A DNA stretch of 64,000 nucleotides from Clostridiales bacterium (lineage in GTDB: Bacteria; Bacillota; Clostridia; Christensenellales; CAG-314): contig JAFLVJ010000001.1 of assembly GCA_022508375.1 (NCBI GenBank), forward strand, positions 66,857 through 130,856, given 5' to 3'. Below the pieces are notes generated by a model. That model saw nothing but the letters and a program-made list of their open reading frames with translations, was not told the origin of the DNA and did no database searches. The translations under genes and the position numbers were made by a program. Shown in pieces: positions 9,578 through 64,000 of this stretch. Numbering within the stretch: position 1 is the first letter of the stretch; every line of letters begins with the position of its first letter.

Positions 9578-9591
9578 GAATTCCTCTCAAA

Positions 9592-10128
9592 TTATACTTT
9601 TTGCTTTACCCGTATAACGTCAACCAAGTCAATGACGTATATCCTGTCGTCACCTGTATCGTGCAACACGTAAACCTCTTTACCGTTGTAATAAACCATT
9701 GATACCGGCGACGGATCAAATGATATTGTTGAAAACATTATCGACGTATCTCTGTAAATCGAGCCTTTATCCAAGTCAATACGCACGGAGTAATATATTC
9801 TGCCCCTGCGGTACCAACATGTATTAACTTGCTCAAGCTTGACGCGATACACAGGACACTGCTCCGCTACGCTTACGACGCGCTTATAACATGAGTAGTT
9901 GTAGATTGCTATACCGAAAAATACACATAAAAGTAACGGAAACAATCCGTATATTTCAATAAGTATAAAAATGTCCAATTCTGCATCTAATAAATTTACC
10001 AGTAAACAAAGCGCTACAAACACGACAGAAAAAATACAAGCAAATATCAGGTAAAATTTCATCCTAAATTTGCGCCACCTGCATTCGACGCTGTTTTTGG
10101 CTTGCTCTTTGGTTATGGAATAAGTCAT
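9592..10128 (-). CDS. two-TM membrane protein, paralog 1 of a tandem pair, function unknown
   Basis: ITKEQAKNSVECRWRKF, two TM helices, and a C-terminal beta-rich domain ending VYVLHDTGDDRIYVIDLVD. A GAGGTGA RBS is present. Confidence 0.7.
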   Translation of the reverse strand: MTYSITKEQAKNSVECRWRKFRMKFYLIFACIFSVVFVALCLLVNLLDAELDIFILIEIYGLFPLLLCVFFGIAIYNYSCYKRVVSVAEQCPVYRVKLEQVNTCWYRRGRIYYSVRIDLDKGSIYRDTSIMFSTISFDPSPVSMVYYNGKEVYVLHDTGDDRIYVIDLVDVIRVKQKV

Positions 10129-15735: not shown

Positions 15736-16080
15736 TTATCCGAAGAAACCTAGGCTAACCAAAAGAGCGTCGTTAATACGTTGCATCACGTCGGGCGGTA
15801 GCTCGCCGATTTTTTCCTTTATTCTGCTTTTGTCTATTGTACGAATTTGCTCCAACAGCACCACCGAATCCTTCGGTAGCGGCGTATTTGCCCGCGTAAG
15901 TTCGATGTGCGTAGGAAGTTTCGCTTTTGTAAGGCGCGACGTAGTTGCTGCTGCAATCACGGTTGGACTGTACTTGTTGCCTACGTCGTTTTGCAAGACT
16001 ACTATCGGACGGATTCCGCCCTGTTCGCTTCCCACAACGGGGTTGAGGTCGGCGTAATAAATTTCTCCTCGCTTAATCAC
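15736..16080 (-). CDS. mazF: MazF/PemK/EndoA-family endoribonuclease toxin
   Basis: [32 protein letters not shown]...VIAAATTS...[12 protein letters not shown] is closely EndoA-like. GTG start with an AAGGAG RBS. Confidence 0.9.
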
Positions 16081-36292: not shown

Positions 36293-36304
36293 GACAGTTA
36301 CCTC

Positions 36305-37126
36305 CTAATCGAAAAGTTTTTGTACCAAATCCCTGCGTTCGCCGCCGATGTCGTCGTAGAACTTTTTGAAAGCGAAGGACGGGATAAACATCAGACACAG
36401 CGTGAGCGCAACGCCGTACACCAACACGTGTAGCTTGAAGGGCGCAAGCATATACGCCACTATCAGCACGACAAGACGTAACGACGCGTACAGCAGCGAC
36501 ATACCAAATAGGTTCATCTGTCTTGAGGACATCACGCGAGCCGAGTGGGACATTGCAACGTTGAAACGGTAGTTATCGCTGTACATAAGCGGAAAAGTCA
36601 TCAATAGCAACCCAAATAGGTATGTCAAAAACACCCTGATTGCAAACGCCAATACCATCGTGATGGATACAATCGCATAGACGTTACCGATAAACTTTAT
36701 CAGGTAACTCAGTCCTACAACTACCAACATCGCAAGTTCGTTTGCGACAATGCACACGACGACGTAAAGCAACATCTGCGGAAAAATTAACAGCGCCTTT
36801 TTTATGGGGAACACTTGCATCTTGCCTACGCGCATATGTCTGCTAATCATAACGACAAGCAGGCACATGGTTAGCACTAGCAACAGGATAGCGCACAACG
36901 TCACCCACCAGTATTTGCCCAGCCTTAGCACCGTCAATACTGATGTTAACATACCCAAAAAGTTATCCGCTGTAATATTGCCGTTGATAAGTGCGTCAAA
37001 TATCGACAACTCCCGAGCAGGATTGTAGAAAAACGCCAACAGCACAGCAACGGGCAACACGACGTACACCAGTCGCCAAAAATTGCGAAAGATATATGAA
37101 AATGTAGATTTTCTTTGTAATCTCAT
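36305..37126 (-). CDS. multi-pass membrane protein, function unknown
   Basis: 273 aa with at least six hydrophobic segments, immediately upstream of the previous gene. Confidence 0.65.
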   Translation of the reverse strand: MRLQRKSTFSYIFRNFWRLVYVVLPVAVLLAFFYNPARELSIFDALINGNITADNFLGMLTSVLTVLRLGKYWWVTLCAILLLVLTMCLLVVMISRHMRVGKMQVFPIKKALLIFPQMLLYVVVCIVANELAMLVVVGLSYLIKFIGNVYAIVSITMVLAFAIRVFLTYLFGLLLMTFPLMYSDNYRFNVAMSHSARVMSSRQMNLFGMSLLYASLRLVVLIVAYMLAPFKLHVLVYGVALTLCLMFIPSFAFKKFYDDIGGERRDLVQKLFD

Positions 37127-37251
37127 ATTTCACCCTTAATTACTTGTAGTAATTATACAGTATATAACGCATTTTTTCAACTATTTAACGGATATAAATA
37201 GTTTGCCACGCCAATATCTGTCAAAAAATACACAAAACCATCACATGGGTC

Positions 37252-37283
37252 AAAAAAAAACGCCCGAGTATAACTCAGGCGTT
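37252..37283 (-). terminator. strong rho-independent terminator closing the phage-like operon
   Basis: On the minus strand, AACGCCUGAG-UUAUA-CUCGGGCGUU is followed by UUUUUUUUU. Confidence 0.8.
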
Positions 37284-37554
37284 AAACAAAGTTGCAGCCA
37301 ACCAATTAACTGCGCGTTTGGTCGGCTGTTTCAAAATATGTCCGCAAAGTTCGGGCGTGTACCGAACATTTGCGCCCTTGCGAGAGGGGGTGCAGAGGGG
37401 AGATATGCGACTTCTCCCCCTGCAGTCACAAAGATGAAGCTTGTGCATCACAAGCTTCCTTGTTAGTCCGACCGCAGGGATGCACAAGCACACGTCAGTG
37501 CAGGGTTGCAAGGCGCAAGCCGCCGTCAACCAAGTCCCTGCGCGTTTGGTCGGA
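37284..37554 (-). ncRNA. candidate structured 3' UTR or ncRNA between the last phage-like gene and the terminator
   Basis: No plausible ORF. At least four strong hairpins, at 37344-37373, 37391-37424, 37436-37458 and 37466-37480/37535-37555. Two 32-nt direct repeats (27/32 identical) each carry GCGTTTGGTCGG. The strand is inferred only from the operon context. Confidence 0.35.
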
Positions 37555-38484
37555 CTAGGGTATTAAGGTTGTGTTTACCCAATCCACAAACGCGCTGTAG
37601 TACGTTCCGAGGTGCACCACCATGAAGGAGTCGAAGGACAGTATAATCTTGCCTTCCTCACGTGTAAGCGGAAAAAATACATCCTGACTGACGGCATATT
37701 TTTCCTTTTCTATCATGCGACGGTAACCAGTTTCGCCGTATTCGAGATACAGCTTGCTGTTGTTGTAAGCGCGGTTGTACGCCGCCCTTCGCGCCGCTTC
37801 GTAGGCTTTGGCGCGGGAAGCCTGATACTTGGCTTCCTTTTCGTCCAATCCCGTGTTGTACTTTTCGATACTGCGTGCAAGCGCTTCCTCGTCCTGTTTG
37901 AGCTTTTGATATTTTTGTATAATACGCGCCGCTTTTTCCTCCTCGAGGTCGGCGCACCTTTCTTGGTAGATTTGTTCGGCGTCCTGTTGCTCCTTATCTA
38001 CAAGCGCCATCTTGTCGGTCCACTCCTTGTTTTTTCGGTTTGTTTTCTTTTCCATCTTGGTTACCAACTGCTCCTCGTACTTGGTGGCAACTGTGGAAAA
38101 TATCAACCCATTATTTATCAAACGACGGTGTAACGCCTCGTATTCCTTGTAGTATTCGTCCAAAACAGCCTGCGCGCTCTTATCCTTGCTAAGCTGCATT
38201 TGAGCAAGCTTGTTTGCTAAGCTTTTGACAGTTGTATTGTAACTTTTGTCCAAGGCAGACTGCTTGGAAATGATGCTTGCAGCTACTTGCTCTTCCGCCA
38301 TTTGCATCAATTCTTCTTCCGTCTTGGGCTCGTATATCAGTTTAGTAAGATAAAGACTGTCCGGCATGTCCAGCTTCGGCTCGACAAATTCCAACGAGTA
38401 CTTTTCGTCAATGTAAAGTATGCGCGTTTTCAGTCCGTTGTAGATGTGCGCTAGCTCTAATAGCCTTTCGTTTGTTACTGCCAT
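37555..38484 (-). CDS. 309-aa coiled-coil protein of the phage-like cluster, function unknown
   Basis: Long K/E/Q/A-rich heptad-like region, and the last gene of the operon. Confidence 0.6.
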   Translation of the reverse strand: MAVTNERLLELAHIYNGLKTRILYIDEKYSLEFVEPKLDMPDSLYLTKLIYEPKTEEELMQMAEEQVAASIISKQSALDKSYNTTVKSLANKLAQMQLSKDKSAQAVLDEYYKEYEALHRRLINNGLIFSTVATKYEEQLVTKMEKKTNRKNKEWTDKMALVDKEQQDAEQIYQERCADLEEEKAARIIQKYQKLKQDEEALARSIEKYNTGLDEKEAKYQASRAKAYEAARRAAYNRAYNNSKLYLEYGETGYRRMIEKEKYAVSQDVFFPLTREEGKIILSFDSFMVVHLGTYYSAFVDWVNTTLIP

Positions 38485-38486
38485 AT

Positions 38487-39734
38487 CTACACCTCATACG
38501 TTCGCGCGGACAGTTCCATACTATCCAGCTGCATGTTGCCTTGCGATTGCACGCTAACGGTAAACTGCCGTCCCGCTCCCGTAATGGGCAACCGCTGAGT
38601 AGTGTTTTTACCGCACACTTTGTAACGACGGTTTTCCGTCCCGTTGTCAATCCACACTTCCAAGTCGCTCTTGGTGCGGACGATAAGTCTATCCAGATAC
38701 TTGACGTCGGAGGTTTTAAAGTCCACCGTCTTGCAGTAACAGCTGACGGTAGGTTCATCCGTATTTACGTATAGCATGTTACCGATGACCGCATAAATCT
38801 TACCATCGGTCGAACAGATATTTTCCACCTTGGCGTCCAATACCGCTACTATCCTGTTGCTATCCACGTCCAACTCAAGCAGAATATCGTTGACTAATTG
38901 ATCGCCGTCCTTCCTCTTGCAGGCGATGTAATACTTGCCGTTGTGAACGCACGCCACCGCTCCGTCGAAACTTACGAAGTCGTTTAACTGGGTGAAAATA
39001 GCAGACAGGGTGTTATTTTTTACCTCGTACAATCCGTTGGTGGAGGCAAATATTGCGCGTTTGCCTAGCTTTGCTACGCTAAACGTTTGTACTTTACCCA
39101 CGTTGTAACCAAATGGTTCGAACTTCATGTTGTAATCCAACCCGTCCGCCTTTAGCGTGTAGCAGGTATCGCCGAGAATATACAGCTTGTCAAGTGCAAC
39201 TAACGCGTCCAGTTCGGAGTGGGCTGTTATATTGACCGTTTCATCCCACCGTCTGATATCGCCGGCTTTGGTCATGTACAGTTGCTTTCCGTTAATTCCG
39301 AATATGCGGTCGCCGTACACTTCGAGACAGGTAAAGTATGCCGAAGTCATTTTATTCGACTCTACCCCATCTACAGTGCTGTATGTTCCCGTCGAACAGG
39401 AAAACACAAGCGCGTCCTGATAGATAACGTGGCTTATCGTCTTGTATGTATTGTTTGCCAAGCGGTATGCGTAGTCGTCGTCCAAATAGCCGAATACTCC
39501 GTGTTCGGCTAGCAGGTACAGCTTGTCACCATAGAAACGAAACGCTTGATCCACTTTAAAGTAAAAGGGCATCTTTGTCAATGCAAAAGTTGACGAGAGC
39601 CCCGTTCCGTTCAAAGCGACGTTTCGCTGATTTACAAATTCGCCCTTCGTCTTGTTGAAGTTCAAATCCAACGTTATCTTGCGTTGTTTGGCGGTTATGG
39701 GGCGAATTTTTTTGCAAAAGAACACTACAACCAC
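38487..39734 (-). CDS. 415-aa beta-rich protein of the phage-like cluster (possible adaptor/nozzle-like structural protein); start uncertain
   Basis: Repetitive beta-strand pattern (…LYILGD…, …IFASTNGLYEV…, …KIYAVIGNMLYV…). The GTG start overlaps the upstream gene and has no spaced RBS. Confidence 0.5.
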   Translation of the reverse strand: MVVVFFCKKIRPITAKQRKITLDLNFNKTKGEFVNQRNVALNGTGLSSTFALTKMPFYFKVDQAFRFYGDKLYLLAEHGVFGYLDDDYAYRLANNTYKTISHVIYQDALVFSCSTGTYSTVDGVESNKMTSAYFTCLEVYGDRIFGINGKQLYMTKAGDIRRWDETVNITAHSELDALVALDKLYILGDTCYTLKADGLDYNMKFEPFGYNVGKVQTFSVAKLGKRAIFASTNGLYEVKNNTLSAIFTQLNDFVSFDGAVACVHNGKYYIACKRKDGDQLVNDILLELDVDSNRIVAVLDAKVENICSTDGKIYAVIGNMLYVNTDEPTVSCYCKTVDFKTSDVKYLDRLIVRTKSDLEVWIDNGTENRRYKVCGKNTTQRLPITGAGRQFTVSVQSQGNMQLDSMELSARTYEV

Positions 39735-40273
39735 CCCCTTGCGGGCATGCGCATAGAGGATGTCTTGACGCCTGCCACCTGCAATGCGTCCTTAAAACGC
39801 GTATCCCAAGCTTTGGCAAGCTCCCAGTCGCCCGTCACAGCGTAGAACTCGCGAACAATGCCATACACAAACGTCCGCTCGGTAATTCGCGGTGAAGGCA
39901 TATGTACTTGATCGCCCCACCCAAGCACGTCGGGCAAGCGCGCGTAACACAGGTTGTATTTGCCGTCCGATTGCACATACAGTCCGCCGTCTCCGTAGCG
40001 ATAATTTACATCGCAGCCTTGCTCATCCAACAGGGATATCACTCGGCACATATGCAGCGAAGCGGTATCGGCAAAGCCGTCGATAACTTCCACCACCGTC
40101 TTGCGCAATGACGTTGCATAATCGCGATACAGCTCCTCGTAAACGAAGTTGCAACTGTTAAGCAATATTTTCACCACGTTGTCGTCAGGCAACACCTCGC
40201 TATCGAAGTATTCCTGTGGCAATCCAAGGTTGAGTATCTCGGCAGAGGTTTTTATTATTTCGTTCGTTTTCAT
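39725..40273 (-). CDS. 182-aa phage-like structural or accessory protein, function unknown
   Basis: AGGAGA RBS, located in the position of head-completion genes. Confidence 0.55.
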   Translation of the reverse strand: MKTNEIIKTSAEILNLGLPQEYFDSEVLPDDNVVKILLNSCNFVYEELYRDYATSLRKTVVEVIDGFADTASLHMCRVISLLDEQGCDVNYRYGDGGLYVQSDGKYNLCYARLPDVLGWGDQVHMPSPRITERTFVYGIVREFYAVTGDWELAKAWDTRFKDALQVAGVKTSSMRMPARGWL

Positions 40274-40314
40274 TGTGTCTCCTAGTTGTTCAAATTAAAT
40301 CGAACATTATCAAA

Positions 40315-40572
40315 TTAATGTTGCGACAATTTGGCGTTATTCTTTTCGATATCTTCAAATACTTGATTAGCATTCCCCACGCTTGTGTAGCGTGCATACT
40401 CCACCGTTCGCACGTCCAATTCGTCATACGGAACGACAAATTCCAACGCGCTTGTGACGGCGTTTCTCACTTCGTATCGGCATTTATTCGTGTTGTAATA
40501 CAGCCGATATCCGTCGTTGACGGAACGCAACCTTTGAGCGATATCGTATAGGTCTTGTGTGATTTCTATCAA
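40315..40572 (-). CDS. 85-aa protein of the phage-like cluster, function unknown
   Basis: TTG start 7 nt after AGGAGA. Confidence 0.5.
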   Translation of the reverse strand: MIEITQDLYDIAQRLRSVNDGYRLYYNTNKCRYEVRNAVTSALEFVVPYDELDVRTVEYARYTSVGNANQVFEDIEKNNAKLSQH

Positions 40573-40746
40573 TTGTGTATCTCCTAAATCTCACGTGCCA
40601 CAGGCACATATCGCTACTCACGTGAGCGAGTACAAATCATCCTCTTGTAAAGTTTTTTCAACCCAAATGTGCAATTACTGCACGGTGATGACGTACTCGC
40701 CACGAGTAACTTTGTTTAGCGATATACTTTCTATGTTACTTTTTAT

Positions 40747-40869
40747 TTGCGGCGGCAGATGCGAAGTAGGCGAGGCGCACGAGGCTTGATTGACGGGAGT
40801 GTACTAGGCGTACACGACCGAAAGCAAACGCAATTGCAACAAAGCATACCGACGCATACCCCGCCTCAA
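40747..40869 (+). repeat. family A structured intergenic repeat, copy A4, inside the phage-like operon
   Basis: Near-identical to A2 (3677-3799). Closing stem TTGCGGCGG/CCGCCTCAA. It abuts the stop of the capsid gene. Confidence 0.8.
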
Positions 40870-40870
40870 A

Positions 40871-42037
40871 TTACGCTTCGGTAATTCCCGAAATCATCGC
40901 TTGTCCGATAGGACGGTCGCAAATAAGGTCGGCGTACTTGACAAGGGTTGCCGTATATACGGGTTTACCCGTTACCTGCTTGATGATACGTCCGTCGTCA
41001 CCTTCCAGCCAGCGCCAATCGCACAGTTGATGAAGCTTGAAGTCGCTGCTGTTAAGTATGTACATGGTTCCAGCAGGTGCAAAGCGGTCGCTTACAACGG
41101 GAATACCGTTGTAGGAAATTGCCTTGTAACCGCCTTGAAGATTCATCACGTCGATGTTGGTGCGGTTGGTGATGAGGTAATCCTGATAGGCTCGTTTTAC
41201 ACCGCCGCTGCACACAATGAAGTCGGCAGTGGAACCGGCAACTTCTTCGAGGGTGTCGATTGCCTTTTGAATGGTTACGTCCGTCAATTTGGACGAAGTT
41301 GTTTTGTAGGGTGTAAGCCATTTGTTGGAGGCGCGAGTGATTCCATACAGCGTGTCGCTATCGCCGAAAATTGCACCCAAGCCTGTAAGTTCCTTGTTGT
41401 AGCTGCCCTGAACAGTCAGGAAATCGCCTGATGTAACAGTTCCCGAACCGATGGAAGCTCCGCTGAGGGTGATTGTTTTGCTTGTGCGATCAACGTCAAC
41501 AATACGGCGGGCAGATACAACAGGAGTCTTGCCACTGTTTCCGATTACATCGACCACCATTCCTTCGATGACGTTGTTTACGGCGTCAACGGTAAGCTTG
41601 TTTCCGCTAGCTGCGGTTACCTTGCACAGCATTCCGCTACCGTCGCCGAACAGCATCCTGCCGAAGTTGAACTTGGAAGCGCGCAAAAGTCCTTCCATTT
41701 CCGCCTCGAGAAGATTAACAAACGCACCGCTGTTGTTTTCGCTTGCGCGTATTGCCTTATCGGAAATTTCGATTGTACCGTACAGGTTTTTCAACGTCAG
41801 CACGAATTGCGCGTAGTTGTTACCGGCGGAAGACGGAAGTTCGCCTTCCTCGGTGCCTGCGCCGATACCGCCGTTTATGCCGAAGGGCGCAAGTTTGCGA
41901 ATTTCTTTACCCCATACGTCGCTTGACGTTTGTTCGAAACGGGCGAGCAGGGGATTGACCGCAGTGTTAAGTTGATCGGCGACAACGCCGAGATACAGGG
42001 TTTTAAGCGCGTTGTCGGCGCTAGTAAGTGTTACCAT
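40871..42037 (-). CDS. major capsid protein (HK97-fold type with an inserted domain)
   Basis: 388 aa directly after the scaffold gene, with an AAAGGAGAA RBS. Its N-terminal and C-terminal segments are typical of phage capsid families (from memory). Confidence 0.75.
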   Translation of the reverse strand: MVTLTSADNALKTLYLGVVADQLNTAVNPLLARFEQTSSDVWGKEIRKLAPFGINGGIGAGTEEGELPSSAGNNYAQFVLTLKNLYGTIEISDKAIRASENNSGAFVNLLEAEMEGLLRASKFNFGRMLFGDGSGMLCKVTAASGNKLTVDAVNNVIEGMVVDVIGNSGKTPVVSARRIVDVDRTSKTITLSGASIGSGTVTSGDFLTVQGSYNKELTGLGAIFGDSDTLYGITRASNKWLTPYKTTSSKLTDVTIQKAIDTLEEVAGSTADFIVCSGGVKRAYQDYLITNRTNIDVMNLQGGYKAISYNGIPVVSDRFAPAGTMYILNSSDFKLHQLCDWRWLEGDDGRIIKQVTGKPVYTATLVKYADLICDRPIGQAMISGITEA

Positions 42038-42049
42038 AGTTTTTCTCCT

Positions 42050-42415
42050 TTAATTGAAATATTTTTTTGCCAATTCCGACGCTTCACGCAGTGTCTTGGG
42101 GCGGTTTGGCAACGCCATAGACACGTTTCCGCCACCCGTCATGACTTTAGGAGGCGTTGCTGAATTTGTATTTACGCTTTGGCAGTCCGCATTGCTGTCG
42201 GCGCTTTGCGGAGCGGGGACTGTAGCCACGTCAACCGCGGTTGACTGCGTATTATTTACTTGCGGTGATGGTTGCCCACTTGTACCGCTGTCTTGTGTTT
42301 TTTGTTCAGCCTGTTTCAATGCCGAAAGCTCCTGACACTTTTGTGTAAAGCTCTTTTCCAGTTCGGTGTAGCCTTTAAGCAGTTCTTCGGCGCTATTGAA
42401 TTTACCGTATTCCAT
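42050..42415 (-). CDS. scaffolding-like protein
   Basis: 121 aa with helical ends and a Q/S/T/P-rich centre, between portal and capsid. The ATG lies 1 nt after the portal stop and has an AAGGAGAAA RBS. Confidence 0.55.
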   Translation of the reverse strand: MEYGKFNSAEELLKGYTELEKSFTQKCQELSALKQAEQKTQDSGTSGQPSPQVNNTQSTAVDVATVPAPQSADSNADCQSVNTNSATPPKVMTGGGNVSMALPNRPKTLREASELAKKYFN

Positions 42416-42416
42416 G

Positions 42417-44327
42417 TTAATAATTACTTTCTCCTTGTTTATTTTTGATGGAAGCACAGTCGATGAGTGCGCTTTCCTTATGTTTGGCGATATGGGCTAA
42501 AATTTTTGCACGATACTCCACGTCAACGTCGTCGATATCAGCTGCAATTATGTGTCGGGTATGCTCCTCGATGTGCAGGGCGTGGTCGTCCACAGGCAGT
42601 ACCTCGGCGTGGTCGATATCCACGTTTTCGCGTTGTGCGCGTGCGATGTGCATTTGCGCAATATCCTGAGCGCTATCCCAGTTGCCGAATCCCATCATGG
42701 ATAGCACCTTGGCTTTGGTGCTTTGCGACAGCCGCCCTTCGCTATCCGTCAAGATACCCGCGTTGAGCAAATCGAACAGCATACTTCTGCGCGTTGCGGG
42801 ACTGTCTGTCAGTTCGTTTTCCGTTTCGAACACCACGTCGTCGCTGCCGATATCGCTTGAGGTAAAGTAAAACAGTTCCGCGCTGTTTTGACCGTCGGCG
42901 TAGCGCATGAGCTTAGCGTTACTAACGAACTGCTTGTACAGCCTCAAGATATACTGCGATATCCGCTTGATGCACCTCTTGATACTATCTACACTGCCCG
43001 CCAAACGAATATCGTCCTGCTCGGCAATGAGCTGCAACGCAACGCCACTTGTAACGGTGGTCGGGGTGCTGCTTTTGCGGGCGAACTCCGACACACCGGA
43101 AATATCGTTGAACTCGCTTAGCAAGTGCTCCTCTTCCTTGGCGAAGTCGCTCGGCACGTCGCCGCTGTCCATGAGCTGCGGCTTGACGGCGCCCTGACGG
43201 TAAACGAGAATTTTGCCGGGGGACAGACCTTCTTCTTCGAGGTTGTCGGTATCCACCGAGCCGTCCTCGACGGTCAACACTCCCATTGCCAGACGGTTGA
43301 GGAACTCATGCTTGCGATTCTTCACCGCGTTGTAGGCGCGCTGTATGGGAATGACCCGTTCCACCATGCTTGTCCCCCAAAAACATCCTGCTTGATCCAA
43401 GGAAACTTGCCTGATAAACGGATAGGCATATTCGCCGTTTTCACCCAGCATGTACGGCAATTCGCCGTAGTACAGCAGCTCGTTTCCGGCAACTATTTCC
43501 AGCTTGCCGTGTGGATGTGCAGACGTTGGCTTGGTATAGCGTTCGATTACCAGTACTTGGTCGTTTTTCGTTTCCTGCACAATGGACGGAACCACGGTAT
43601 TGTATCCCAGTCCGCCCACGCTTGCCGCGCCGTCAATGGCAAATACCTTGACGGTATCACCTGCAATATCTACACCCCATGTGTCTTTTACCTCGCTTGC
43701 ACTATATACCTTGGCATGAATGACTGATGTACAATCCTCCACACTTGCGGTGACGTTGCTGTCGGGATATATCTCGAATGGGGAACAAACGGAAACCGTT
43801 GCCTCATCGCAAGCGGCGTCCCAACTTACCTTGTAAAAGGACGTTCCGCACACTTCGCTCCACGCCGTTGCACGGGTGATGATTTCGTCAAGGTGCATTT
43901 TTTCCCGCGCAGAACTTAATATCTTGGTGGCAAGCTTGGCGCTGTTCACGTCGGCGTCACTGCCGGAAAAAGGTCTCGCCATTGGACGGGGACGTACGCG
44001 GTTGAGGCGAGACATGCGCGTCTCCACTATTGTTGCGATGTGGTTGAATACCTGCTTTTCCTGCCAAAAGTAATACTTGTCCTCCTGCTCGATACTGCCA
44101 CGCGGGGACACTGCACAGTACTGGTTGCCCATTACGAAGTTCATATTCAGTTGCCAGTTGAGCTCGTAAGGACGGCGCATTTTTTGCCGCGCGGCGAAGT
44201 CCGATTTGACGCTGTTAACTACTTCTTCGGCGAATTCGGGCGTTACGGGTTTTGCCTGTTGCTGCTGCGTTTCGGGCGAAGAATTCATGTTTTCGTGGTA
44301 TGGGGTGGGATTATTGCTTGTCGTCAT
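42417..44327 (-). CDS. phage portal protein
   Basis: 636 aa, upstream of scaffold and capsid and downstream of terminase. Its size and conserved N-terminal region (NWQLNMNFVMGNQY) are portal-like. Confidence 0.75.
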   Translation of the reverse strand: MTTSNNPTPYHENMNSSPETQQQQAKPVTPEFAEEVVNSVKSDFAARQKMRRPYELNWQLNMNFVMGNQYCAVSPRGSIEQEDKYYFWQEKQVFNHIATIVETRMSRLNRVRPRPMARPFSGSDADVNSAKLATKILSSAREKMHLDEIITRATAWSEVCGTSFYKVSWDAACDEATVSVCSPFEIYPDSNVTASVEDCTSVIHAKVYSASEVKDTWGVDIAGDTVKVFAIDGAASVGGLGYNTVVPSIVQETKNDQVLVIERYTKPTSAHPHGKLEIVAGNELLYYGELPYMLGENGEYAYPFIRQVSLDQAGCFWGTSMVERVIPIQRAYNAVKNRKHEFLNRLAMGVLTVEDGSVDTDNLEEEGLSPGKILVYRQGAVKPQLMDSGDVPSDFAKEEEHLLSEFNDISGVSEFARKSSTPTTVTSGVALQLIAEQDDIRLAGSVDSIKRCIKRISQYILRLYKQFVSNAKLMRYADGQNSAELFYFTSSDIGSDDVVFETENELTDSPATRRSMLFDLLNAGILTDSEGRLSQSTKAKVLSMMGFGNWDSAQDIAQMHIARAQRENVDIDHAEVLPVDDHALHIEEHTRHIIAADIDDVDVEYRAKILAHIAKHKESALIDCASIKNKQGESNY

Positions 44328-44544
44328 AATTTTGCTCCTTGTTTTTCAGTTCCATTTTTTTCTTGATTGTGTTTTGCGGACTCTTCGGAACGCGGGGCGC
44401 AAGCCCTTCGCCGACTATATCGCTTAGGCACTTTGAGCACAGATAACATCTGCCCGCTCTGCCCTTGATGGCAAATTGATACTCCGCGTCGTTTTTGCAA
44501 TCTCTTACGTCGCACTTGGTTTTGTTTGTTATAGGTTGTAGCAT
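44311..44544 (-). CDS. 77-aa zinc-ribbon-like protein
   Basis: CDVRDC...CYLCSKC cysteine pairs and an AAAGGAGAA RBS. It overlaps the portal start by 17 nt. Confidence 0.55.
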   Translation of the reverse strand: MLQPITNKTKCDVRDCKNDAEYQFAIKGRAGRCYLCSKCLSDIVGEGLAPRVPKSPQNTIKKKMELKNKEQNYDDKQ

Positions 44545-44561
44545 TGTGTTCTCCTTTTACG

Positions 44562-44873
44562 TTATTCTTCGTCGTCCGATTGTTCGGTTGACGGTTGCTT
44601 GGTTTCTTCATAGACGTTGAGCAAGCGGATCAATCTGAGCTTTTCCACTTGCAGTTGTTCGTCCGTCATCTTGGTGACGTCGGTGTTGTCGTCCGTTAGG
44701 GTGATAAGCGCCTTCAAGGCGTTAACGTCGGGGTGCGCGCGCTTGGTTACAATCTTGCTCTTGACAAGCTTTTTTTCACCGTCCACCACTACGTACTCGT
44801 CCGTCTTTTCGCGGTAGGCGTACCCCTTGGCTTTTTTGAGTAGTATCTTGGTTATCAGTTGCTTCGTGTCCAT
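44562..44873 (-). CDS. 103-aa protein, possibly terminase small-subunit-like
   Basis: KRAHPDVNALKALITL resembles the conserved PD..A segment of some TerS proteins, and the tail is acidic. The assignment is tentative. Confidence 0.4.
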   Translation of the reverse strand: MDTKQLITKILLKKAKGYAYREKTDEYVVVDGEKKLVKSKIVTKRAHPDVNALKALITLTDDNTDVTKMTDEQLQVEKLRLIRLLNVYEETKQPSTEQSDDEE

Positions 44874-44880
44874 GTTGATT

Positions 44881-46290
44881 TCATCTTCTTAATCGCTTCA
44901 TCAATTTTTCCTTATCCTTTTGTACCCAGGTCTTTTCAGGTTTTGCTTCCTCCTTATCCGTTAGCGAACACACGTAGTAACGCAGTTCGTCCATGGCGTG
45001 ATCGTCTCGCTTTATCGGGGCGTCGCCGTTCCCCCAAAAGTATCCTTTTATTTCCCGAATCATGTTTAAGCAATTACTGAATATGTACAGCTTAGGGGGA
45101 CCGCTTAGCGGTTTGAGCATAGCCTTGACCTTGTTGATTCCGAAAAATATACTTTTGTTGACCCGCGTGTTTACCGTGATTCCCTGCTCGTTGAACAGTT
45201 CGGCAACACTCTTGATTCCGTTTAGCGTGCGCTGATTTGCCGCGCTGTCCATAAGCGCCGAGATACGACCGAACTTGTCCCTTTTCCAGTTGAGTCGCTG
45301 GCTTATTTCCTTAATCCTTGCGGCGTGATACACCACGTCACGCCCCGCCTCGTAGTGCTCCGCAACCACATACACGTTTCCGTCGTAGTCGCGCATATAC
45401 CAGTGACAGGACAATGGATTGTTAAGCCCCGGGTCGATACTTATGCCGTCCTGCCAGTCCGTCGGTAATTCGCGTGGCTCAATGACGTTGAGCTCGCTAA
45501 ACTCGGGATACACCAGTCCGTAACTGGCGGTGAACCGTCCGTAACGGCGACTTTCCAACATTTCGGCGGATATGCTTTCGCTCATCAGCTCGACTTCGCT
45601 TTGGTTGAGGTAAGGGTTGTCGCTCCACTCCATAAATTCGTACCACACTTCCTTAGAATTGTGGCTGTTGAGATATATTTCGTCGTACACCCAGCTGAGT
45701 CCTTTGAGCGGAGTCATGGTTCCGAATACGTGCCCTTGTCTGTCCAGTACGCGCATACGGCACTCCTCGTATATGTCAAGAGGCGGTTCCTCGTCGAACC
45801 ACACGAAGTCAAGACTCGTACCTTGAAACTTTTCCCGTCCCGCCTCGCAGCTTTTGAAGGCAATCTTGGAAGTCCCGCCCAAGACGTTATCGACAATTAT
45901 GTAGTCGATGACGCCGTACTCGGGACTGGCCTTGGAGCCGTTCGACATCACGATTTCCTTTATCCAGCTTTTGTCAAGATAGTACAAAATTTTTTGCTGA
46001 GCCACGTCGCGTTGCACCTGCTGGGATAGCGACACCACCCAACAACTGACGTTTGCGAGGTTTTGTCGGTATGGGTGAATACCGCGCGCAAGCCACACCG
46101 TTTCCACTGCTCCGCACTCCGTCTTGCCACTGCGATTTCCGCCGAATACCCAACGGTTGCGTTTGAGGCACTTGTGAAAAGCCATCTGCTTGACATGCAC
46201 CTTGCCCTTGTTGTAGCGCGCAAGCGGACTTTCCAACCGCCTGCGCTCTTCCTGTTCGATTTGTTTTATTCTGGTAAGAATTTCTTTCAT
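44881..46290 (-). CDS. terminase large subunit
   Basis: Walker A GGNRSGKTECG, Walker B-like LDFVWFDEEP and a C-terminal nuclease-like region. The start is placed at MKEILTRIK. The track ORF extends to 46386. Confidence 0.85.
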   Translation of the reverse strand: MKEILTRIKQIEQEERRRLESPLARYNKGKVHVKQMAFHKCLKRNRWVFGGNRSGKTECGAVETVWLARGIHPYRQNLANVSCWVVSLSQQVQRDVAQQKILYYLDKSWIKEIVMSNGSKASPEYGVIDYIIVDNVLGGTSKIAFKSCEAGREKFQGTSLDFVWFDEEPPLDIYEECRMRVLDRQGHVFGTMTPLKGLSWVYDEIYLNSHNSKEVWYEFMEWSDNPYLNQSEVELMSESISAEMLESRRYGRFTASYGLVYPEFSELNVIEPRELPTDWQDGISIDPGLNNPLSCHWYMRDYDGNVYVVAEHYEAGRDVVYHAARIKEISQRLNWKRDKFGRISALMDSAANQRTLNGIKSVAELFNEQGITVNTRVNKSIFFGINKVKAMLKPLSGPPKLYIFSNCLNMIREIKGYFWGNGDAPIKRDDHAMDELRYYVCSLTDKEEAKPEKTWVQKDKEKLMKRLRR

Positions 46291-46421
46291 AAAATTTTTG
46301 AAGTATTTTGTCCTAGTCAATACTTGTCTAATACAGACACAACTCGGCAAAATTTCTTTCTGCCGCGGTTTTACACTTAAATACACTCACACCATGAGCC
46401 GGCCCGAGCGGCAAGGAGCGG

Positions 46422-51688: not shown

Positions 51689-51927
51689 ATCAATTACCTA
51701 CTCCAAACAGTAAATTGACAACAAACGAAGATGATTTTACAAGATGAGCGTATTGTAACACACAAGACAAAGCGCTCCCTGACAACTACTGTCATTTATT
51801 GTCTGTTTATAGTGTATTTTATTTGTAAAACAGTAAAAATATGTCACAAAAAAAGGCTCCCCTTACATAAAGAGAAACCTTTTTAACCATTAAATTGTGA
51901 CCGATATTAAACAACCGCAGCAAAGTA

Positions 51928-52009
51928 GGCGAGTATGTTCCGAAAAAGTGACCCGTCAGGGGAACGTAGCGCAAGCGCAGTGCGGAATCTGTTTCGGAAT
52001 ATACGAGCC
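51928..52009 (-). repeat. family B palindromic repeat, copy B5
   Basis: Reverse complement GGCTCGTATATTCCGAAACAGATTCCGCACTGCGCTTGCGCTACGTTCCCCTGACGGGTCACTTTTTCGGAACATACTCGCC. Confidence 0.8.
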
Positions 52010-52014
52010 TAAGC

Positions 52015-53712
52015 CTAAAAGTCGAAGTCGAACTTCTTACCCGAATTGCGGCGTTCGGGCGTATTGTACACAAATTTATCATCCAATGGATTACTTGAAC
52101 AAACGTATGCACTTTCCACCGCTTGCGGAAGATTACTAAATTCCTTGCACTGATAGTAACGCTCCAACTTGCTGAACAGCACGTAACCGCAATTTGCCTC
52201 GGTGACGATACACTCGCCCACAGCAAGGCTGGATAACGCGCTCTTGGGGACCAATGAAATCGTTTCGACTTGGTAAGTTTCAATTTCCTCCTTGCTACCG
52301 TTTAATGCACTTACGGGTGCGATTCGGGTAAACTCTCCGCACTCGGTACTGAATTCCTTAAGCGTTAGCGGATTATTGCTTCCTATAAACACGTGAACGT
52401 TGAGGTTATCGCGTATGATTTCCGCCACGTCCTTACCGTAAACGTTATTCAGCTGCGCGTAGCTTTGCAGTATCAATATGAAGAAAATGTTTCGACCACC
52501 GCAGGCGGATATGACTGTTTCGAAGTCGGTGATTGCGGGGAAGTTGCCAAATTCGTCCAAGATGAAGTAAAACGGAACATCAAGCTTGCCAGTCGGACGG
52601 TTATTGGCGTATTCGATAAGAAAGTTGTACGCACTTTGAATGAGCGCCGATATCACCTGGTAATGCGCCTTCAGCTCATCGCGGTACGATATAAATATCG
52701 CTATCGGTCTGTCACTTACCATTTCGCCGAAATCAAAGCTGTTGCAACTGGTAATCAGACGCACTTCACCGCTTTTATATACCGACATCTTGGCGTTAAA
52801 TGTGCTTACTATGCACTTGCGAGTGTTGGGAGCATTTTCCAAAATGCAGTTTTTGGCAATTGTATAGGCACGGGAATCTTTCTTACGGCTGGAAAAGTAA
52901 CCGTTGTCGTTGTAACGAGTTTCGTTACCGTCGCGCATTGAGTCCATGATGGCAAGCAACGTACGGAAGGAAAAAGTTTCCTCAGTAATGGGAGCAGTTC
53001 CGTCCGTAGGCTTCGTATCCTCAAGCATAGCCCAGATACCTGCGCGAAGCAAATCCCTTGCCGAATCCTCCCAGTAGGGGTCGGTGTTTTTTTCGGTGGA
53101 AATTATACGCAAAGCGAGATTGTCGATTTCGTTTCCGACATCCTCCATTGCTATCTTTTTAAGCTGCTCTACCGCTCTGTCTAGCTTGACCTGACTTTCG
53201 TACACCACACCCTGAAAACGATTGCGAGCGCCGTTTGACGTTTCCACTATTTCGATTTCATCTTCCATGTTGCACGCCCGCATATATTTCTTGAATATGG
53301 GGGTTAACGGATTCCAACATTCGGAGTGAAGAAAATCACGAAAGTTGAACAGCTTTACGTTGTACCCTTCGGCGCGAAGCGTTTCACTTAGATTGCGGTA
53401 CAATTCGCCTTTCGGGTCGGATATAATCATAGAGCGCTTTTCCTTTTGATGGGCGTAGGACAGTATTGTCGGAACTACGTACTGGGTCGTTTTGCCCAAA
53501 CGGGTTGCTGCAATTACTCCAACGTGGTTTTCCTGCTTGGAGTAGGTTTGCAGCAGCTGTCCGTTGACGTATCTGCTGGCTTTTAGCACACCGCTAACCT
53601 TTTTGCGATGAAGCTCATCGTATGCAACGGTGTTTTCGAAGTCGCCAGACATGTCCTTGTAATGCAAAAGCTTGGTGTTTTCGTATCCACGAAGTATATC
53701 ATTGTAGTTCAT
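52015..53712 (-). CDS. soluble TraG/VirD4-like type IV coupling-protein-family ATPase (no TM segments)
   Basis: Walker A AATRLGKTT, SDPKGELY, Walker B FYFILDEFGNF, and ILQSYAQLNNVYG of the TraG-D_C/T4CP family. Its ATG overlaps the upstream stop (ATGA). Confidence 0.75.
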   Translation of the reverse strand: MNYNDILRGYENTKLLHYKDMSGDFENTVAYDELHRKKVSGVLKASRYVNGQLLQTYSKQENHVGVIAATRLGKTTQYVVPTILSYAHQKEKRSMIISDPKGELYRNLSETLRAEGYNVKLFNFRDFLHSECWNPLTPIFKKYMRACNMEDEIEIVETSNGARNRFQGVVYESQVKLDRAVEQLKKIAMEDVGNEIDNLALRIISTEKNTDPYWEDSARDLLRAGIWAMLEDTKPTDGTAPITEETFSFRTLLAIMDSMRDGNETRYNDNGYFSSRKKDSRAYTIAKNCILENAPNTRKCIVSTFNAKMSVYKSGEVRLITSCNSFDFGEMVSDRPIAIFISYRDELKAHYQVISALIQSAYNFLIEYANNRPTGKLDVPFYFILDEFGNFPAITDFETVISACGGRNIFFILILQSYAQLNNVYGKDVAEIIRDNLNVHVFIGSNNPLTLKEFSTECGEFTRIAPVSALNGSKEEIETYQVETISLVPKSALSSLAVGECIVTEANCGYVLFSKLERYYQCKEFSNLPQAVESAYVCSSNPLDDKFVYNTPERRNSGKKFDFDF

Positions 53713-55334
53713 TTTGAGTAACCTCCAAAACCGTAAGCGTTGCGCGAGTTGCCTTTGAGAATCTTTTCGTACGGCTTAAACAGCTCCGCCGTGATGACGG
53801 TAAACTTGCTGTTGAAGCGCTGTTCGCTAAACAACTTGTCCAGGGCACGCTCAATAGCGTTGGGTGAACAGTTACACAGCATATCTACAACATCCTTGTC
53901 AGCCGAAATGGGCTTAGTCATATACAGTTTGCTCTTTTTGTCAAGCAGAACCTTGACGATATCTTGTTTTTCTTCCGCGCTGATATCCGCAAGATTAACA
54001 CACTCGACGCTGTTACCAAGCTTAGTTGCGTTAGCTTCGTCACACACACAAATGGGCAGTATAGGACTGAGATCCAACGTTACGCGTGGAGTGTTCAAAC
54101 GAAAACGACGGCGCTTTGCGCTGTTAAGGAAGCTTTTGACGTGACCGATTGCGGTGTTGTCAACATCACCCTTGAGCGTAAGTATGTAAACGTTGTTTTT
54201 GTCGTCGTTGCAGCTACGCACGAAAACGTTGCTTGCCGTCGGATCGAAGTCGTAAGGTTTGAGGTCGGCAACGTCGATACGTTCGCAGTGATTTGCGGAT
54301 ACAGCAGACACTATTGCTTCAAGATAAGCTTCCAATACGTATCCCGATTCGCTCACCAGACACAGCGGACGGTAGCCGTCATGCTGACGTAGGTCGGAGT
54401 TGCGTAACTTGGTCTTGATGTCGCTTTGCTCCTGCTTGCGCTTGAGGGGCATTGATTGTAGCGAATCGAGATTGAGGGATAAATCGTTGTAACTGAGTTT
54501 TAGCGGGAGGTCACATACTTCCGACAGTATTGCTTTGTTATCGGAAAACAGCACCTTTTCCTTGTCTTTGATGTCGATGGCGTTGCCGAATATCAGCCTT
54601 GCGCACATTGGTTGAAACGCTTCGGATTTAACCTTGTTGGACGCAACACCCTTTTTAAGCAATGCAATTTCCTGACTTTTACATGTGTGTTTTATACCGC
54701 AGTTTTGCTCAACTGTTTCAAGCAAATATTCAAAGTTGCTGTTTTCAACAGTTGCAGCAAGGCGGTTTAAGCACTCTTGTAGCGCAACTGTATCGTTACT
54801 TGCGTAGAGGTAACGGGTTAGTGCAAGCAAGCTTACAAGGTCTGCCCACTGTCCTGCTTTGTTGAGGTTTTTAAGTCCGATATCCAATTGCTTATCCACA
54901 AAGATACCTTCGCATTGCAGTGTACCAAGCAGGCGCATTGCAACTATGTTACCTGCCAATGCTGTATCGCTTAGAGCCTTGCATATTTGCGCTTGCGTAG
55001 CATTTGCGTCCGCAGCCAAGTTGTTGCTCAAGGCAAGCTTTATGGCCTTGCTCTTGATGGACACCATTTCCTGCATGTCATCATCTACAAGCGTGTATTC
55101 GTTCAACTCGCAGTACTGACGTATGCGGCTATAACGCATTGCGTCACCGTAGGTTACAATTTCCTTGATCGGTTCATCTTCCGAAAGCTTGAATAGATAG
55201 TCTTTGCTTGCTTGCGGAATGTAAAATAAATCTGCAAGGTAATTGAATACTCTTACCTTGTCGCAGTACTTGCCCAGTGCCGATGCGTACAAAAAGTACT
55301 GGGCAAGAAATGTTTCATTAACTATATTGATCAT
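53709..55334 (-). CDS. 541-aa protein with a Sel1-like repeat and an uncharacterised C-terminal domain
   Basis: AGNIVAMRLLGTLQCEGIFVDKQLDIGLKNLNKAGQWADLVSLLAL fits the Sel1 repeat pattern. The C-terminal half has AAA-lid-like spacing but no P-loop (tentative). The ATG at 55334 lies 9 nt after GGAGGTG. Confidence 0.6.
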   Translation of the reverse strand: MINIVNETFLAQYFLYASALGKYCDKVRVFNYLADLFYIPQASKDYLFKLSEDEPIKEIVTYGDAMRYSRIRQYCELNEYTLVDDDMQEMVSIKSKAIKLALSNNLAADANATQAQICKALSDTALAGNIVAMRLLGTLQCEGIFVDKQLDIGLKNLNKAGQWADLVSLLALTRYLYASNDTVALQECLNRLAATVENSNFEYLLETVEQNCGIKHTCKSQEIALLKKGVASNKVKSEAFQPMCARLIFGNAIDIKDKEKVLFSDNKAILSEVCDLPLKLSYNDLSLNLDSLQSMPLKRKQEQSDIKTKLRNSDLRQHDGYRPLCLVSESGYVLEAYLEAIVSAVSANHCERIDVADLKPYDFDPTASNVFVRSCNDDKNNVYILTLKGDVDNTAIGHVKSFLNSAKRRRFRLNTPRVTLDLSPILPICVCDEANATKLGNSVECVNLADISAEEKQDIVKVLLDKKSKLYMTKPISADKDVVDMLCNCSPNAIERALDKLFSEQRFNSKFTVITAELFKPYEKILKGNSRNAYGFGGYSK

Positions 55335-55341
55335 TGCGATA

Positions 55342-55920
55342 CTACACCTCCTTGTCAAGTTGCTTTTTTGCCTTGTTTTTGCAAGGGATTACAGTGTCGA
55401 TAAGACCGTACTCCAGCGCTTCCTGCGCCGTCATACTTTTGTCTCGGTCGGTATCGATATTGATTTGGCGAATACTCTTGCCGGTATTTTCCGACAAAAT
55501 CGTGTTTAGACGCTTGCGCATGCGCTCAATGTGGTTGGCGGCGATAATTATATCGCTGGCTTGACCTTGCGCACCACCCAAAGGCTGGTGAATCAGTATG
55601 TCGCAGTTTTCGGTTGCTCTGCGGTAGCCGCGGCTTCCTGCGGACAACAAAAAAGCACCCATACTGGCTGCCCTTCCAATTCCAACTGTGACGATACGCG
55701 CTTTGATAAAGTTCATCGTATCGTATATCGCGAGACCTGCACTTACACTACCACCGGGCGAATTGATTTGAATGGTAATTTCTTCTGCGCCGTTGTCATC
55801 GAGATATTGTAATTGGGAAATGACCAATTCAGCCATTACGTCGTCAATAACACCGAAAATATTTACGGTATTACGCTTCAAGCTGTAATCCAACGAAAAA
55901 TCTTCTTTGCACTTTATCAT
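55342..55920 (-). CDS. clpP: ClpP-family serine protease paralog with a divergent N-terminus
   Basis: INSPGGSVSAGLAIYDTM, AASMGAFLL (Ser), IHQPLGGAQGQASD (His) and DTDRD (Asp) are all present. The canonical N-terminal axial-loop sequence is replaced. The ATG at 55920 lies 8 nt after GGTGGTGA. Confidence 0.85.
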   Translation of the reverse strand: MIKCKEDFSLDYSLKRNTVNIFGVIDDVMAELVISQLQYLDDNGAEEITIQINSPGGSVSAGLAIYDTMNFIKARIVTVGIGRAASMGAFLLSAGSRGYRRATENCDILIHQPLGGAQGQASDIIIAANHIERMRKRLNTILSENTGKSIRQINIDTDRDKSMTAQEALEYGLIDTVIPCKNKAKKQLDKEV

Positions 55921-56026
55921 TTTGATTCTCACCACCTTTAAAAAATATTGTTTAGTACACGAAAAACGCGTTTTCGCACCTTGTGCGTTTCGCCCTAAAT
56001 TGCGCGTTTTTACGCCTTACATCTAT

Positions 56027-56055
56027 ATTATAATGATGTTATATAACTTTGTCAA
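56027..56055 (-). promoter_or_regulatory. consensus sigma-A promoter of the clpP-like operon
   Basis: On the minus strand, TTGACA (56055-56050), a 17-nt spacer, then TATAAT (56032-56027). A ~100-nt 5' UTR with hairpins and three AAACGC repeats follows. Confidence 0.7.
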
Positions 56056-56150: not shown

Positions 56151-56183
56151 AAAATAAAAAAAACTCCCCTTAAAACAGGGGAG
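56151..56183 (-). terminator. terminator of the 2-hydroxyacid dehydrogenase gene
   Basis: On the minus strand, CUCCCCU-GUUUUA-AGGGGAG is followed by UUUUUUUUAUUUU. Confidence 0.7.
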
Positions 56184-56215
56184 CAAAGAGTGGAATCTTT
56201 TTCGGAATACCCTTG

Positions 56216-63593: not shown

Positions 63594-64000
63594 TTACTCT
63601 TTCGATGCTCCCGTTTCGTACCTAAGAACTTTATCCACGGCTATACCGCCTTTTTTACCTTGCGGGAGCTTGCCCTTGTGATTTTTGCTCTCGACGCTTA
63701 CATCACTGCTATCCACAACGTAGGTAGAAGCCTTGTCGTAGATTGCAATCTTAAACGGTTCCTCATTCATATAGCTTGCGTAAACAATACAGTCGCCGTT
63801 GTTGCCAAATTCGATACCTTTAGCGCCCTTGCAGTTACGCGCATGCTTGGTGATATCCTTGACGGACAAACGTTTCATAAATCCCTTATTGGTAACCATG
63901 AGCGCTTCGCCCTTTTCCTTAGCCACCTGACCGCCGAAGATTATATACTCGTCGTCATCAAGATTGATGCAGTGTACACCACCGGCAACTCTACCCTGAA
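63594..64000 (-). CDS. C-terminal part of a type IIA topoisomerase subunit A (GyrA/ParC beta-pinwheel); gene continues beyond the right edge
   Basis: The frame is open to the window edge. ...RVAGGVHCINLDDDEYIIFGG...ALMVTNKGFMKRLSVKDI...GAKGIEF is typical of GyrA/ParC C-terminal blades. Confidence 0.7.
   Translation of the reverse strand, partial: QGRVAGGVHCINLDDDEYIIFGGQVAKEKGEALMVTNKGFMKRLSVKDITKHARNCKGAKGIEFGNNGDCIVYASYMNEEPFKIAIYDKASTYVVDSSDVSVESKNHKGKLPQGKKGGIAVDKVLRYETGASKE

Follow-up and report, generated by a model that had tools for sequence, protein, structure and literature searches.

The locus analysed here lies in a 64-kb stretch of DNA from a Clostridiales metagenome-assembled genome (MAG), hereafter the window, and consists of three minus-strand genes that are translationally coupled in the order ClpP-subfamily serine peptidase, 541-amino-acid middle protein (MID) and VirD4/TraG-family type IV coupling protein ATPase (T4CP). 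It is best filed as a conserved, chromosomal and undescribed module that follows the theme of ClpP and its partners, with an unprecedented T4CP component. We tentatively interpret the three co-translated products as the parts of a chromosomal proteolytic machine specific to this lineage, although a reading as a DNA translocase stands close to it. The locus belongs to no known defence or conjugation system, and no description of such a system was found in the searched literature, in agreement with the view of a first-pass annotation of this DNA, made from the sequence alone, that no described system has this composition.

Database searches revealed that MID belongs to a family of 255 clusters (50% identity) at E<1e-30, all of about 535 amino acids, which came from MAGs of gut Clostridia labelled Christensenellaceae-like by their depositors. 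The source metagenomes were of human, mouse, rabbit and other animal-associated origin, and the proteins were annotated only as hypothetical. Searches of phage records (50,697), plasmid records (72,556) and a viral contig collection detected no MID homologs, while a scan of metagenomes with MID returned 4 loci. In total, 32 distinct loci were compared, with ClpP called by a hidden Markov model. MID and T4CP were adjacent in 29 of the 30 distinct loci whose downstream region is present, and 15 of the 32 loci had a dedicated ClpP gene as the direct upstream neighbour of MID. Two members of the ClpP subfamily that were picked independently of MID were both located in ClpP-MID-T4CP-FtsK_gamma operons. 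The co-occurrence of the trio, on which the earlier annotation had staked its proposal, is therefore observed in many genomes, but ClpP is present in only those 15 loci, and the invariant core is MID with T4CP, not the trio. The identity of the related proteins to those of the window was 66-86% for ClpP, 49-87% for T4CP and 31-68% for MID, and this slower divergence of ClpP and T4CP and faster divergence of MID is what would be expected for enzymes and an adaptor, respectively. Two loci (L012 and L024) are contigs of one MAG (JAIEAS01) and carry two different MID-T4CP pairs, representing either paralogous copies or a mixed bin.

No match to MID was obtained in Pfam, NCBIfam, PHROG or PADLOC. 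An AlphaFold (AF2) model built from 26 homologs, with a predicted local distance difference test score (pLDDT) of 90, depicted an all-helical N-terminal domain and a C-terminal AAA+-fold domain of the Lon/Clp type, the last 12 residues of the protein being disordered (pLDDT <50). Putative Sel1-like repeats were located at about residues 107-182 of the N-terminal domain: the family profile matched the solved Sel1-repeat protein 6ok3 (E 1e-5, positions 112-182) and HcpB (0.007), and the best Foldseek matches of the isolated domain were, weakly (E 0.03-1), SEL1L and bacterial Sel1-repeat proteins. The Sel1 repeat recognized in the first-pass annotation is thus backed by the family profile, but the Pfam Sel1 model stays below threshold, being matched by 4 of the 26 members with a best E of 0.021. 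For the C-terminal domain, the same annotation had faintly suspected an AAA+ module without a P-loop, an idea that the AF2 model and the structural matches confirmed. Foldseek comparison of MID with the PDB placed LONP1 first (E 8e-8), followed by bacterial Lon, ClpB, Hsp104 and ClpC, and Lon was again the best match to the fold in a viral structure library. At the sequence level, the family profile retrieved only Sel1 proteins from the PDB sequences, with no similarity to Lon. Where the GPPGxGKT motif is expected, the window MID reads LCLVSESGY (family consensus LCLxSDSxY), and a search of the whole protein for a Walker A pattern was positive in only 5 of the 251 family members. A pore loop may be formed by the conserved Y-D-F-E-P-T segment that comes after beta-2. 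In the modelled architecture, MID combines a Sel1-like helical domain, a Lon-type AAA+ fold without Walker A and a flexible [Y/F/I]GFGG tail.

Clp ATPases dock on ClpP via a (V/I)GF/L tripeptide carried on a flexible loop (PMC8182300, PMC9035409). The sequence of the MID tail, which reads AYGFGGYSK in the window, resembles this docking motif. GFG was invariant across the 26-sequence MID alignment, and xGFG ([Y/F/I/L/M]GFG) was present within the last 30 residues in 219 of 251 members (87%); a 24-residue tail peptide found no match among the PDB sequences. In loci with a dedicated ClpP the tail reads Y/F-GFGG, or RGFGYGG in one clade, and in loci without it I/M/C-GFGG, a pattern suggesting that the residue before GFG tracks the presence of the dedicated ClpP. 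The tail is also dual-coding, with the GGA GGT codons of the window MID forming the GGAGG (53722-53726) that serves as the Shine-Dalgarno sequence (SD) of the T4CP gene. In all 29 related loci with a downstream T4CP gene, the Gly-Gly codons are GGA GGN and the T4CP start lies 7-9 nt past the tail-encoded GGAGG. The explanation that GFGG is conserved merely as the SD codons of T4CP was considered and ruled out: L029, the only locus without a downstream T4CP, keeps IGFGG with GGC GGC codons and no SD, and L001 and L039 carry GFG and the SD at separate sites, which argues that the peptide itself is under selection.

The presumed receptor of this tail, the window ClpP, scored 214.7 bits (1e-63) with Pfam CLP_protease (cut-off 20.2) and retains the Ser-His-Asp triad as well as the ASMG, IHQP and DTDRD motifs. 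It missed the NCBIfam equivalog and subfamily cut-offs of TIGR00493 (209 vs 308.6) and PRK00277 (218 vs 249). Homology to solved ClpPs begins at its residue 15 opposite residue 25, indicating that it has no axial hairpin. In the subfamily, 44-46 residues precede the INSPGG motif compared to 59 in the S. aureus ClpP sequence used as the alignment reference, the N-terminus being about 13 residues shorter than that of canonical ClpP. The first-pass annotation was right about the triad and about the loss of the N-terminal axial region, but the hairpin is deleted and not, as it had stated, replaced by unrelated sequence. In canonical ClpP, the docking pocket is hydrophobic and includes the gating Tyr63 of S. 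aureus and B. subtilis (PMC8182300). Alignment of the window ClpP with canonical ClpPs showed this Tyr changed to Gln (LYINSPGG becomes TIQINSPGG), together with two further changes in the pocket (KRFALPN becomes YRRATEN and QLLFL becomes QLQYL). These changes were kept in every MID-linked ClpP and in nearly all of the best 120 database matches to the window protein, which were 71-100% identical to it and about 187 amino acids long: 101 of the 120 have xxxQ-[IV][ND]S[PS]GG at the Tyr63 site, 1 has His and 18 fell outside the search pattern, while in 118 the KRFALP segment is replaced by a polar [YF]R[RK][AV]T. The sequence thus places the window ClpP in a conserved subfamily that keeps the triad, has no axial gating hairpin and shows a remodelled pocket for ATPase docking. 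A second ClpP was not found within the window.

The PHROG head-maturation protease families also match this protein (phrog_94, 3e-41), terminase and portal genes are close by, and prohead proteases likewise have no axial loops, so that ClpP could be taken for a phage prohead-maturation protease and the whole cluster for part of the neighbouring phage-like element. This reading is very improbable in view of the much closer relationship to cellular ClpP (about 55-59% identity, E 5e-56), the deacetylase, SSB and other genes that intervene before the phage cluster and the different GC content of that cluster, and it is largely refuted by the related loci, most of which carry the operon without phage genes.

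The third protein matched Pfam T4SS-DNA_transf (1e-47) and TraG-D_C (3e-26), contains a TrwB_AAD domain and aligned with the solved Cag5 (E 4e-9). Its Walker A (AATRLGKT) is located at residue 68 (53488-53511), the DPKGE motif at residue 99 and Walker B (FILDEF) at residue 383 (52549-52566). Hydropathy analysis revealed no N-terminal transmembrane anchor in the window protein or in its best-matching relatives, the maximum 19-residue hydropathy of 1.76 falling at the Walker B strand. The earlier description of a T4CP without a membrane anchor, with TraG-D_C and all three motifs, thus holds, and the protein, predicted to be soluble, has intact ATPase motifs and accompanies MID in nearly every locus. 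Its C-terminus (52018-52035) consists of a basic stretch followed by FDF, and most family members likewise have a basic stretch with FDF, FDY or WDF last; this end could serve as a docking peptide, the Sel1-like domain of MID being one possible receptor.

A T4CP of this kind might alternatively be an orphan of a decayed conjugative element that has come to lie beside unrelated genes. The nearest annotated relatives are indeed T4CPs of conjugative plasmids, and the window protein just exceeds the NCBIfam conju_CD1115 cut-off (253 vs 250 bits). Identity to the conjugative CD1115-family plasmid T4CPs is, however, 27-30% compared to 49-87% inside the MID-linked clade, and the window protein (565 amino acids) is missing the approximately 100-residue N-terminal extension of a 729-amino-acid plasmid protein that adjoins a conjugation membrane protein. 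Moreover, the ATPase motifs are intact, purifying selection is strong and the translational coupling to MID is conserved. The gene content of the window was read from the Pfam families recorded on called genes; none of them carries a record for a relaxase, VirB4 or integrase family, in line with the absence of relaxase and VirB4 genes noted in the first-pass annotation, and the same three families are unrecorded in the annotated relatives. T4CP was never inside a conjugation module in the approximately 30 related loci, and no conjugation or defence genes recur near these loci. The decayed-element origin is, on these grounds, largely refuted and has a very small chance of being correct.

The comparison of loci also revealed a fourth gene. 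A gene for an FtsK_gamma winged-helix protein directly follows T4CP in 23 of 30 loci, and its family ranges from motor-less proteins of 210-470 amino acids, with one or two gamma domains, up to complete soluble FtsK, in which the alpha, motor and gamma domains are all present, in some clades. In L041, a close relative with the same flanking synteny, a 269-amino-acid FtsK_gamma gene (9302-10111) is located between T4CP and a polysaccharide deacetylase, a position at which the window has only about 330 nt (51689-52014). No remnant of FtsK_gamma was detected at that position, nor a gamma-domain open reading frame anywhere in the window. Judged from this comparison of loci, the window and L043 have lost the FtsK_gamma gene without leaving a remnant, and together with L006 they carry ClpP-MID-T4CP without a gamma protein. 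Separately, the FtsK-like genes of L021 (13292-15877), L028 (13306-15813), L017 (13326-14954) and L019 (9598-11010) were seen to form a series from full motor to motor-less, each with an extra winged helix first and a long acidic linker, and with an N-terminal membrane segment not obvious by eye.

This fourth gene brings forward a close rival, in which the core function is DNA translocation (chromosome segregation, dimer resolution or DNA clearance at division) by T4CP with the FtsK-gamma protein or FtsK, and MID and ClpP only regulate this motor, for instance through controlled turnover of T4CP or its partner, without being driven by it. The position of the FtsK_gamma gene in those 23 loci and the full soluble FtsK of some clades fit this explanation, as do the strong conservation of T4CP, the dispensability of ClpP in about half of the loci, the ftsZ gene that adjoins the cluster in L003, L010 and L013, and the proximity of the cluster to gyrB/gyrA in the window lineage. 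On the other side, the window, L043 and L006 keep the trio without the gamma protein, which implies that the trio functions without it, and the near-universal GFG tail and the AAA+ fold tie MID and T4CP to ClpP even where no local ClpP exists. We consider this rival possible but rather unlikely.

In the proteolytic machine that we prefer, MID would act as a non-hydrolysing ring or adaptor whose C-terminal tail docks into ClpP in the manner of the (V/I)GF loops of ClpX, ClpA and ClpC. Where the dedicated ClpP is present, the Y/F-GFGG tail and the altered pocket would form an insulated pair, and where it has been lost, the I-GFGG tail would engage housekeeping ClpP. Since MID is predicted to be unable to hydrolyse ATP, and T4CP has intact motifs and is co-translated, the role of motor or of substrate delivery probably falls to the T4CP hexamer. 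MID may use its Sel1-like domain to pick substrates or to hold T4CP, and the FtsK-gamma protein encoded in most genomes would tie the complex to DNA, a partnership suggesting that the targets are DNA-associated proteins. The window would then represent a minimal three-gene version without the FtsK-gamma component.

Several observations weigh against this mechanism. The pocket of the dedicated ClpP has turned polar (Q, T, R), and a hydrophobic GF peptide may not dock there, so that the dedicated ClpP may bind MID in another way or fail to bind it. ClpP is missing from about half of the loci, and some other function may be the core one, with proteolysis as an accessory. The covariation of tail and ClpP amounts to about two independent ClpP losses in a neighbour-joining tree and, being confounded by phylogeny, is suggestive and not statistical, the GG of the tail motif is also constrained as the T4CP SD, and about 13% of the 251 MID family members are without GFG in the last 30 residues. 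In addition, we know of no T4CP that feeds a protease. The ATPase-protease machine suggested in the first-pass annotation has gained from the predicted dead AAA+ domain of MID, its GFGG tail, the remodelled ClpP and the covariation, but it has to accommodate a ClpP that is not invariant and a fourth gene that is usual.

That annotation had also proposed a role in anti-phage or anti-plasmid defence or in the maintenance of a mobile element, in part on account of phage-like, repeat-rich surroundings. A terminase/portal cluster does start about 5.6 kb from the operon, with deacetylase, SSB and other genes between, but no tandem repeats were found in the 40-64 kb part of the window, the GC content of the operon is the same as that of its flanks, and the other flank is housekeeping (2-hydroxyacid dehydrogenase, PfkB, NAD synthase (nadE), TrmB and GyrA). 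Most of the remaining window is likewise housekeeping (groEL/ES, valS, dapAB, RNase J, nadE, trmB and gyrA). In a defence system, the fast-evolving Sel1 domain of MID would serve as the sensor of an invader, and MID would then set off a destruction that depends on ClpP or T4CP. The evolution of MID, about 2x faster than that of its partners, the nearby terminase/portal cluster, an AbiEii gene about 8 kb from one related locus and the variable accessory genes of the cluster (ClpP, Sel1 protein, HTH regulator) are compatible with such a role. Against it, PADLOC-DB 2.0 had no match for ClpP or MID and only a weak mad8 match for T4CP (E 3e-4, P-loop region); MID has no homologs in the phage, plasmid and viral contig collections; the base composition is native and repeats are lacking; housekeeping synteny is retained between genomes whose MIDs share 68% identity; and the related loci share neighbours of the division and repair type, not defence genes. 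A defence or mobile-element maintenance role is not supported by these results and is improbable.

The coordinates of the features are given in Table 1. The operon is driven by the perfect consensus promoter described in the first-pass annotation, and the orthologous operons of L043 and L041 are preceded by the same hexamers with the same spacing. The short gap between ClpP and MID, with the SD of MID (AGGAGG) embedded in the final ClpP codons, and the overlap of MID with T4CP were both seen as described. The claim of a structured leader, in contrast, was not borne out: its minimum free energy of -18.7 kcal/mol gave z = -0.18 against shuffled sequence and hence no excess structure, a search of Rfam gave zero matches, and the leader sequence, unlike the promoter, is unconserved in the close relatives compared (L043 and L041). 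The three GCG-A(3-5)-CGC mini-palindromes of the leader lie within 55955-56010 of the minus strand, with a T run after the last one; they were not found in the leaders of L043 and L041, and could be an operator or a weak attenuator.

Table 1. Features of the ClpP-MID-T4CP operon and of the neighbouring phage-like cluster (positions in the window).
Feature	Position	Strand	Remark
Intrinsic terminator of the upstream 2-hydroxyacid dehydrogenase gene	56163..56184	-	marks the 5' boundary of the operon
Sigma-70-type promoter, TTGACA-17-TATAAT	56027..56055	-	12/12 consensus matches
5' untranslated leader, ~100 nt, with SD GGTGGTGA and three GCG-A(3-5)-CGC mini-palindromes	55924..56026	-	
ClpP-subfamily serine peptidase gene, 193 aa from ATG	55342..55923	-	Pfam 1e-63
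MID gene, 541 aa	53709-55334	-	7-nt gap after ClpP
MID N-terminal all-helical domain, aa 1-298	54441..55334	-	AF2 pLDDT 89-90
MID C-terminal AAA+-fold domain, aa 300-527, Lon/Clp type	53754..54437	-	predicted, Foldseek
YGFGG motif in the MID C-terminal tail	53721..53735	-	proposed ClpP-docking peptide
Soluble T4CP (VirD4/TraG-family) ATPase gene, 565 aa	52015..53712	-	ATGA overlap with MID
Phage-like cluster	36300-46400	terminase and portal -	large terminase, P22-type portal, ~8 unannotated genes
Large terminase	44881-46386	-	
P22-type portal	42417-44327	-	

The GC content of the phage-like cluster (0.49-0.52) is slightly above that of its surroundings. In L043, where MID has just 68% identity to that of the window, the placement of the cluster with respect to the operon is unchanged, and the cluster may be an old or domesticated element. 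The gyrB and gyrA genes were observed about 6-10 kb from the operon in the window lineage (L043 230-4701; window end ~63600-64000), and given this proximity the locus may be near the replication origin. A PemK-family toxin gene adjoins valS at ~15736-16080 on the minus strand, as recorded in the Pfam annotation precomputed for the matching contig. Among the related loci, a DUF1292-like protein (100-150 amino acids) and an unannotated protein of 240-300 amino acids recur (L001, L002, L003, L021, L025, L039 and others), their genes being placed upstream of ClpP or MID or downstream of FtsK, and genes for an XRE-type regulator and for a bona fide Sel1 protein are further repeated neighbours of the operons; none of these four neighbour genes was found in the window. 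Further downstream, genes for YgjP-like metallopeptidase, Macro/ASCH, HAD_SAK_2 and metallophosphatase proteins recur in relatives.

Comparison with known systems showed the closest parallels in ClpXP, ClpAP and ClpCP, which likewise place a ClpP-family peptidase beside an AAA+-fold protein with [I/Y/F]GF on a flexible segment and share the proposed docking logic, with its hexamer-on-heptamer symmetry mismatch. The present locus differs in that the predicted AAA+ domain of MID is without Walker A and so could not be the motor, in that its motif is at the extreme C-terminus after the lid and not on a large-subdomain loop, in that the elements engaged by ClpX, axial hairpins and gating Tyr, are missing from the dedicated ClpP, and in that a separate RecA-fold ATPase is translationally coupled. 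Lon, whose AAA+ module is the best structural match in the PDB and viral libraries, also has a helical region before its AAA+ domain; MID, however, has no fused S16 protease domain, in place of which it carries a short docking-like tail, and it has neither nucleotide-binding motifs nor sequence-level similarity to Lon. Docking through a C-terminal tail is known for HslU on HslV and for the HbYX motif of proteasomal ATPases on the 20S core, and in MID, too, a short C-terminal motif after the AAA+ lid would enter pockets of the protease ring, although here the GF motif is of the ClpX type, ClpP is the protease, and MID, which bears the tail, is predicted not to be an ATPase.

In organisms with ClpP1 and ClpP2 (Listeria, Mycobacterium and Chlamydia), the second, divergent ClpP has an altered partner specificity, and the window ClpP could similarly be a specialised paralog or form mixed rings with housekeeping ClpP; in contrast to those pairs, a putative partner is encoded alongside the divergent window ClpP, whose axial loop is entirely lost. 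The window T4CP resembles the CD1115-family VirD4-like coupling proteins (pLS20-type) in its nucleotide-binding and all-alpha domains, TraG-D_C and Walker A/B motifs, and differs from them in being chromosomal and highly conserved, with no conjugation genes nearby and with its expression coupled to MID. T4CPs are a sister family of FtsK, and the FtsK_gamma-domain protein encoded right after T4CP in most relatives recalls FtsK, SpoIIIE and SftA, except that the gamma domain is on a separate, often motor-less polypeptide and is missing from the window.

A bolder form of the proposal sees in the complex the first ATP-dependent compartmental protease driven by a RecA-fold hexamer of the FtsK/T4CP type in place of an AAA+ unfoldase, with a dead Lon-like ring that bridges T4CP and ClpP by its C-terminal GF tail and, in most genomes, with FtsK-gamma as the guide along DNA; it is doubtful at this stage. 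If it is true, gut Clostridia of a large clade would possess a protease that tracks along DNA and clears it of bound or crosslinked proteins. To our knowledge, T4CPs are known solely as substrate receptors of conjugation and secretion machines, and a soluble, highly conserved and chromosomal member coupled to a partner of ClpP would add a new role in the cell to those of the family. A natural ClpP predicted to be without a gate or a canonical docking pocket is encoded here, together with a putative pseudo-ATPase partner with a ClpX-like C-terminal motif. The locus also seems to illustrate the insulation of paralogs, with Y/F-GFGG tails paired with the dedicated ClpP and I-GFGG tails presumably with housekeeping ClpP.

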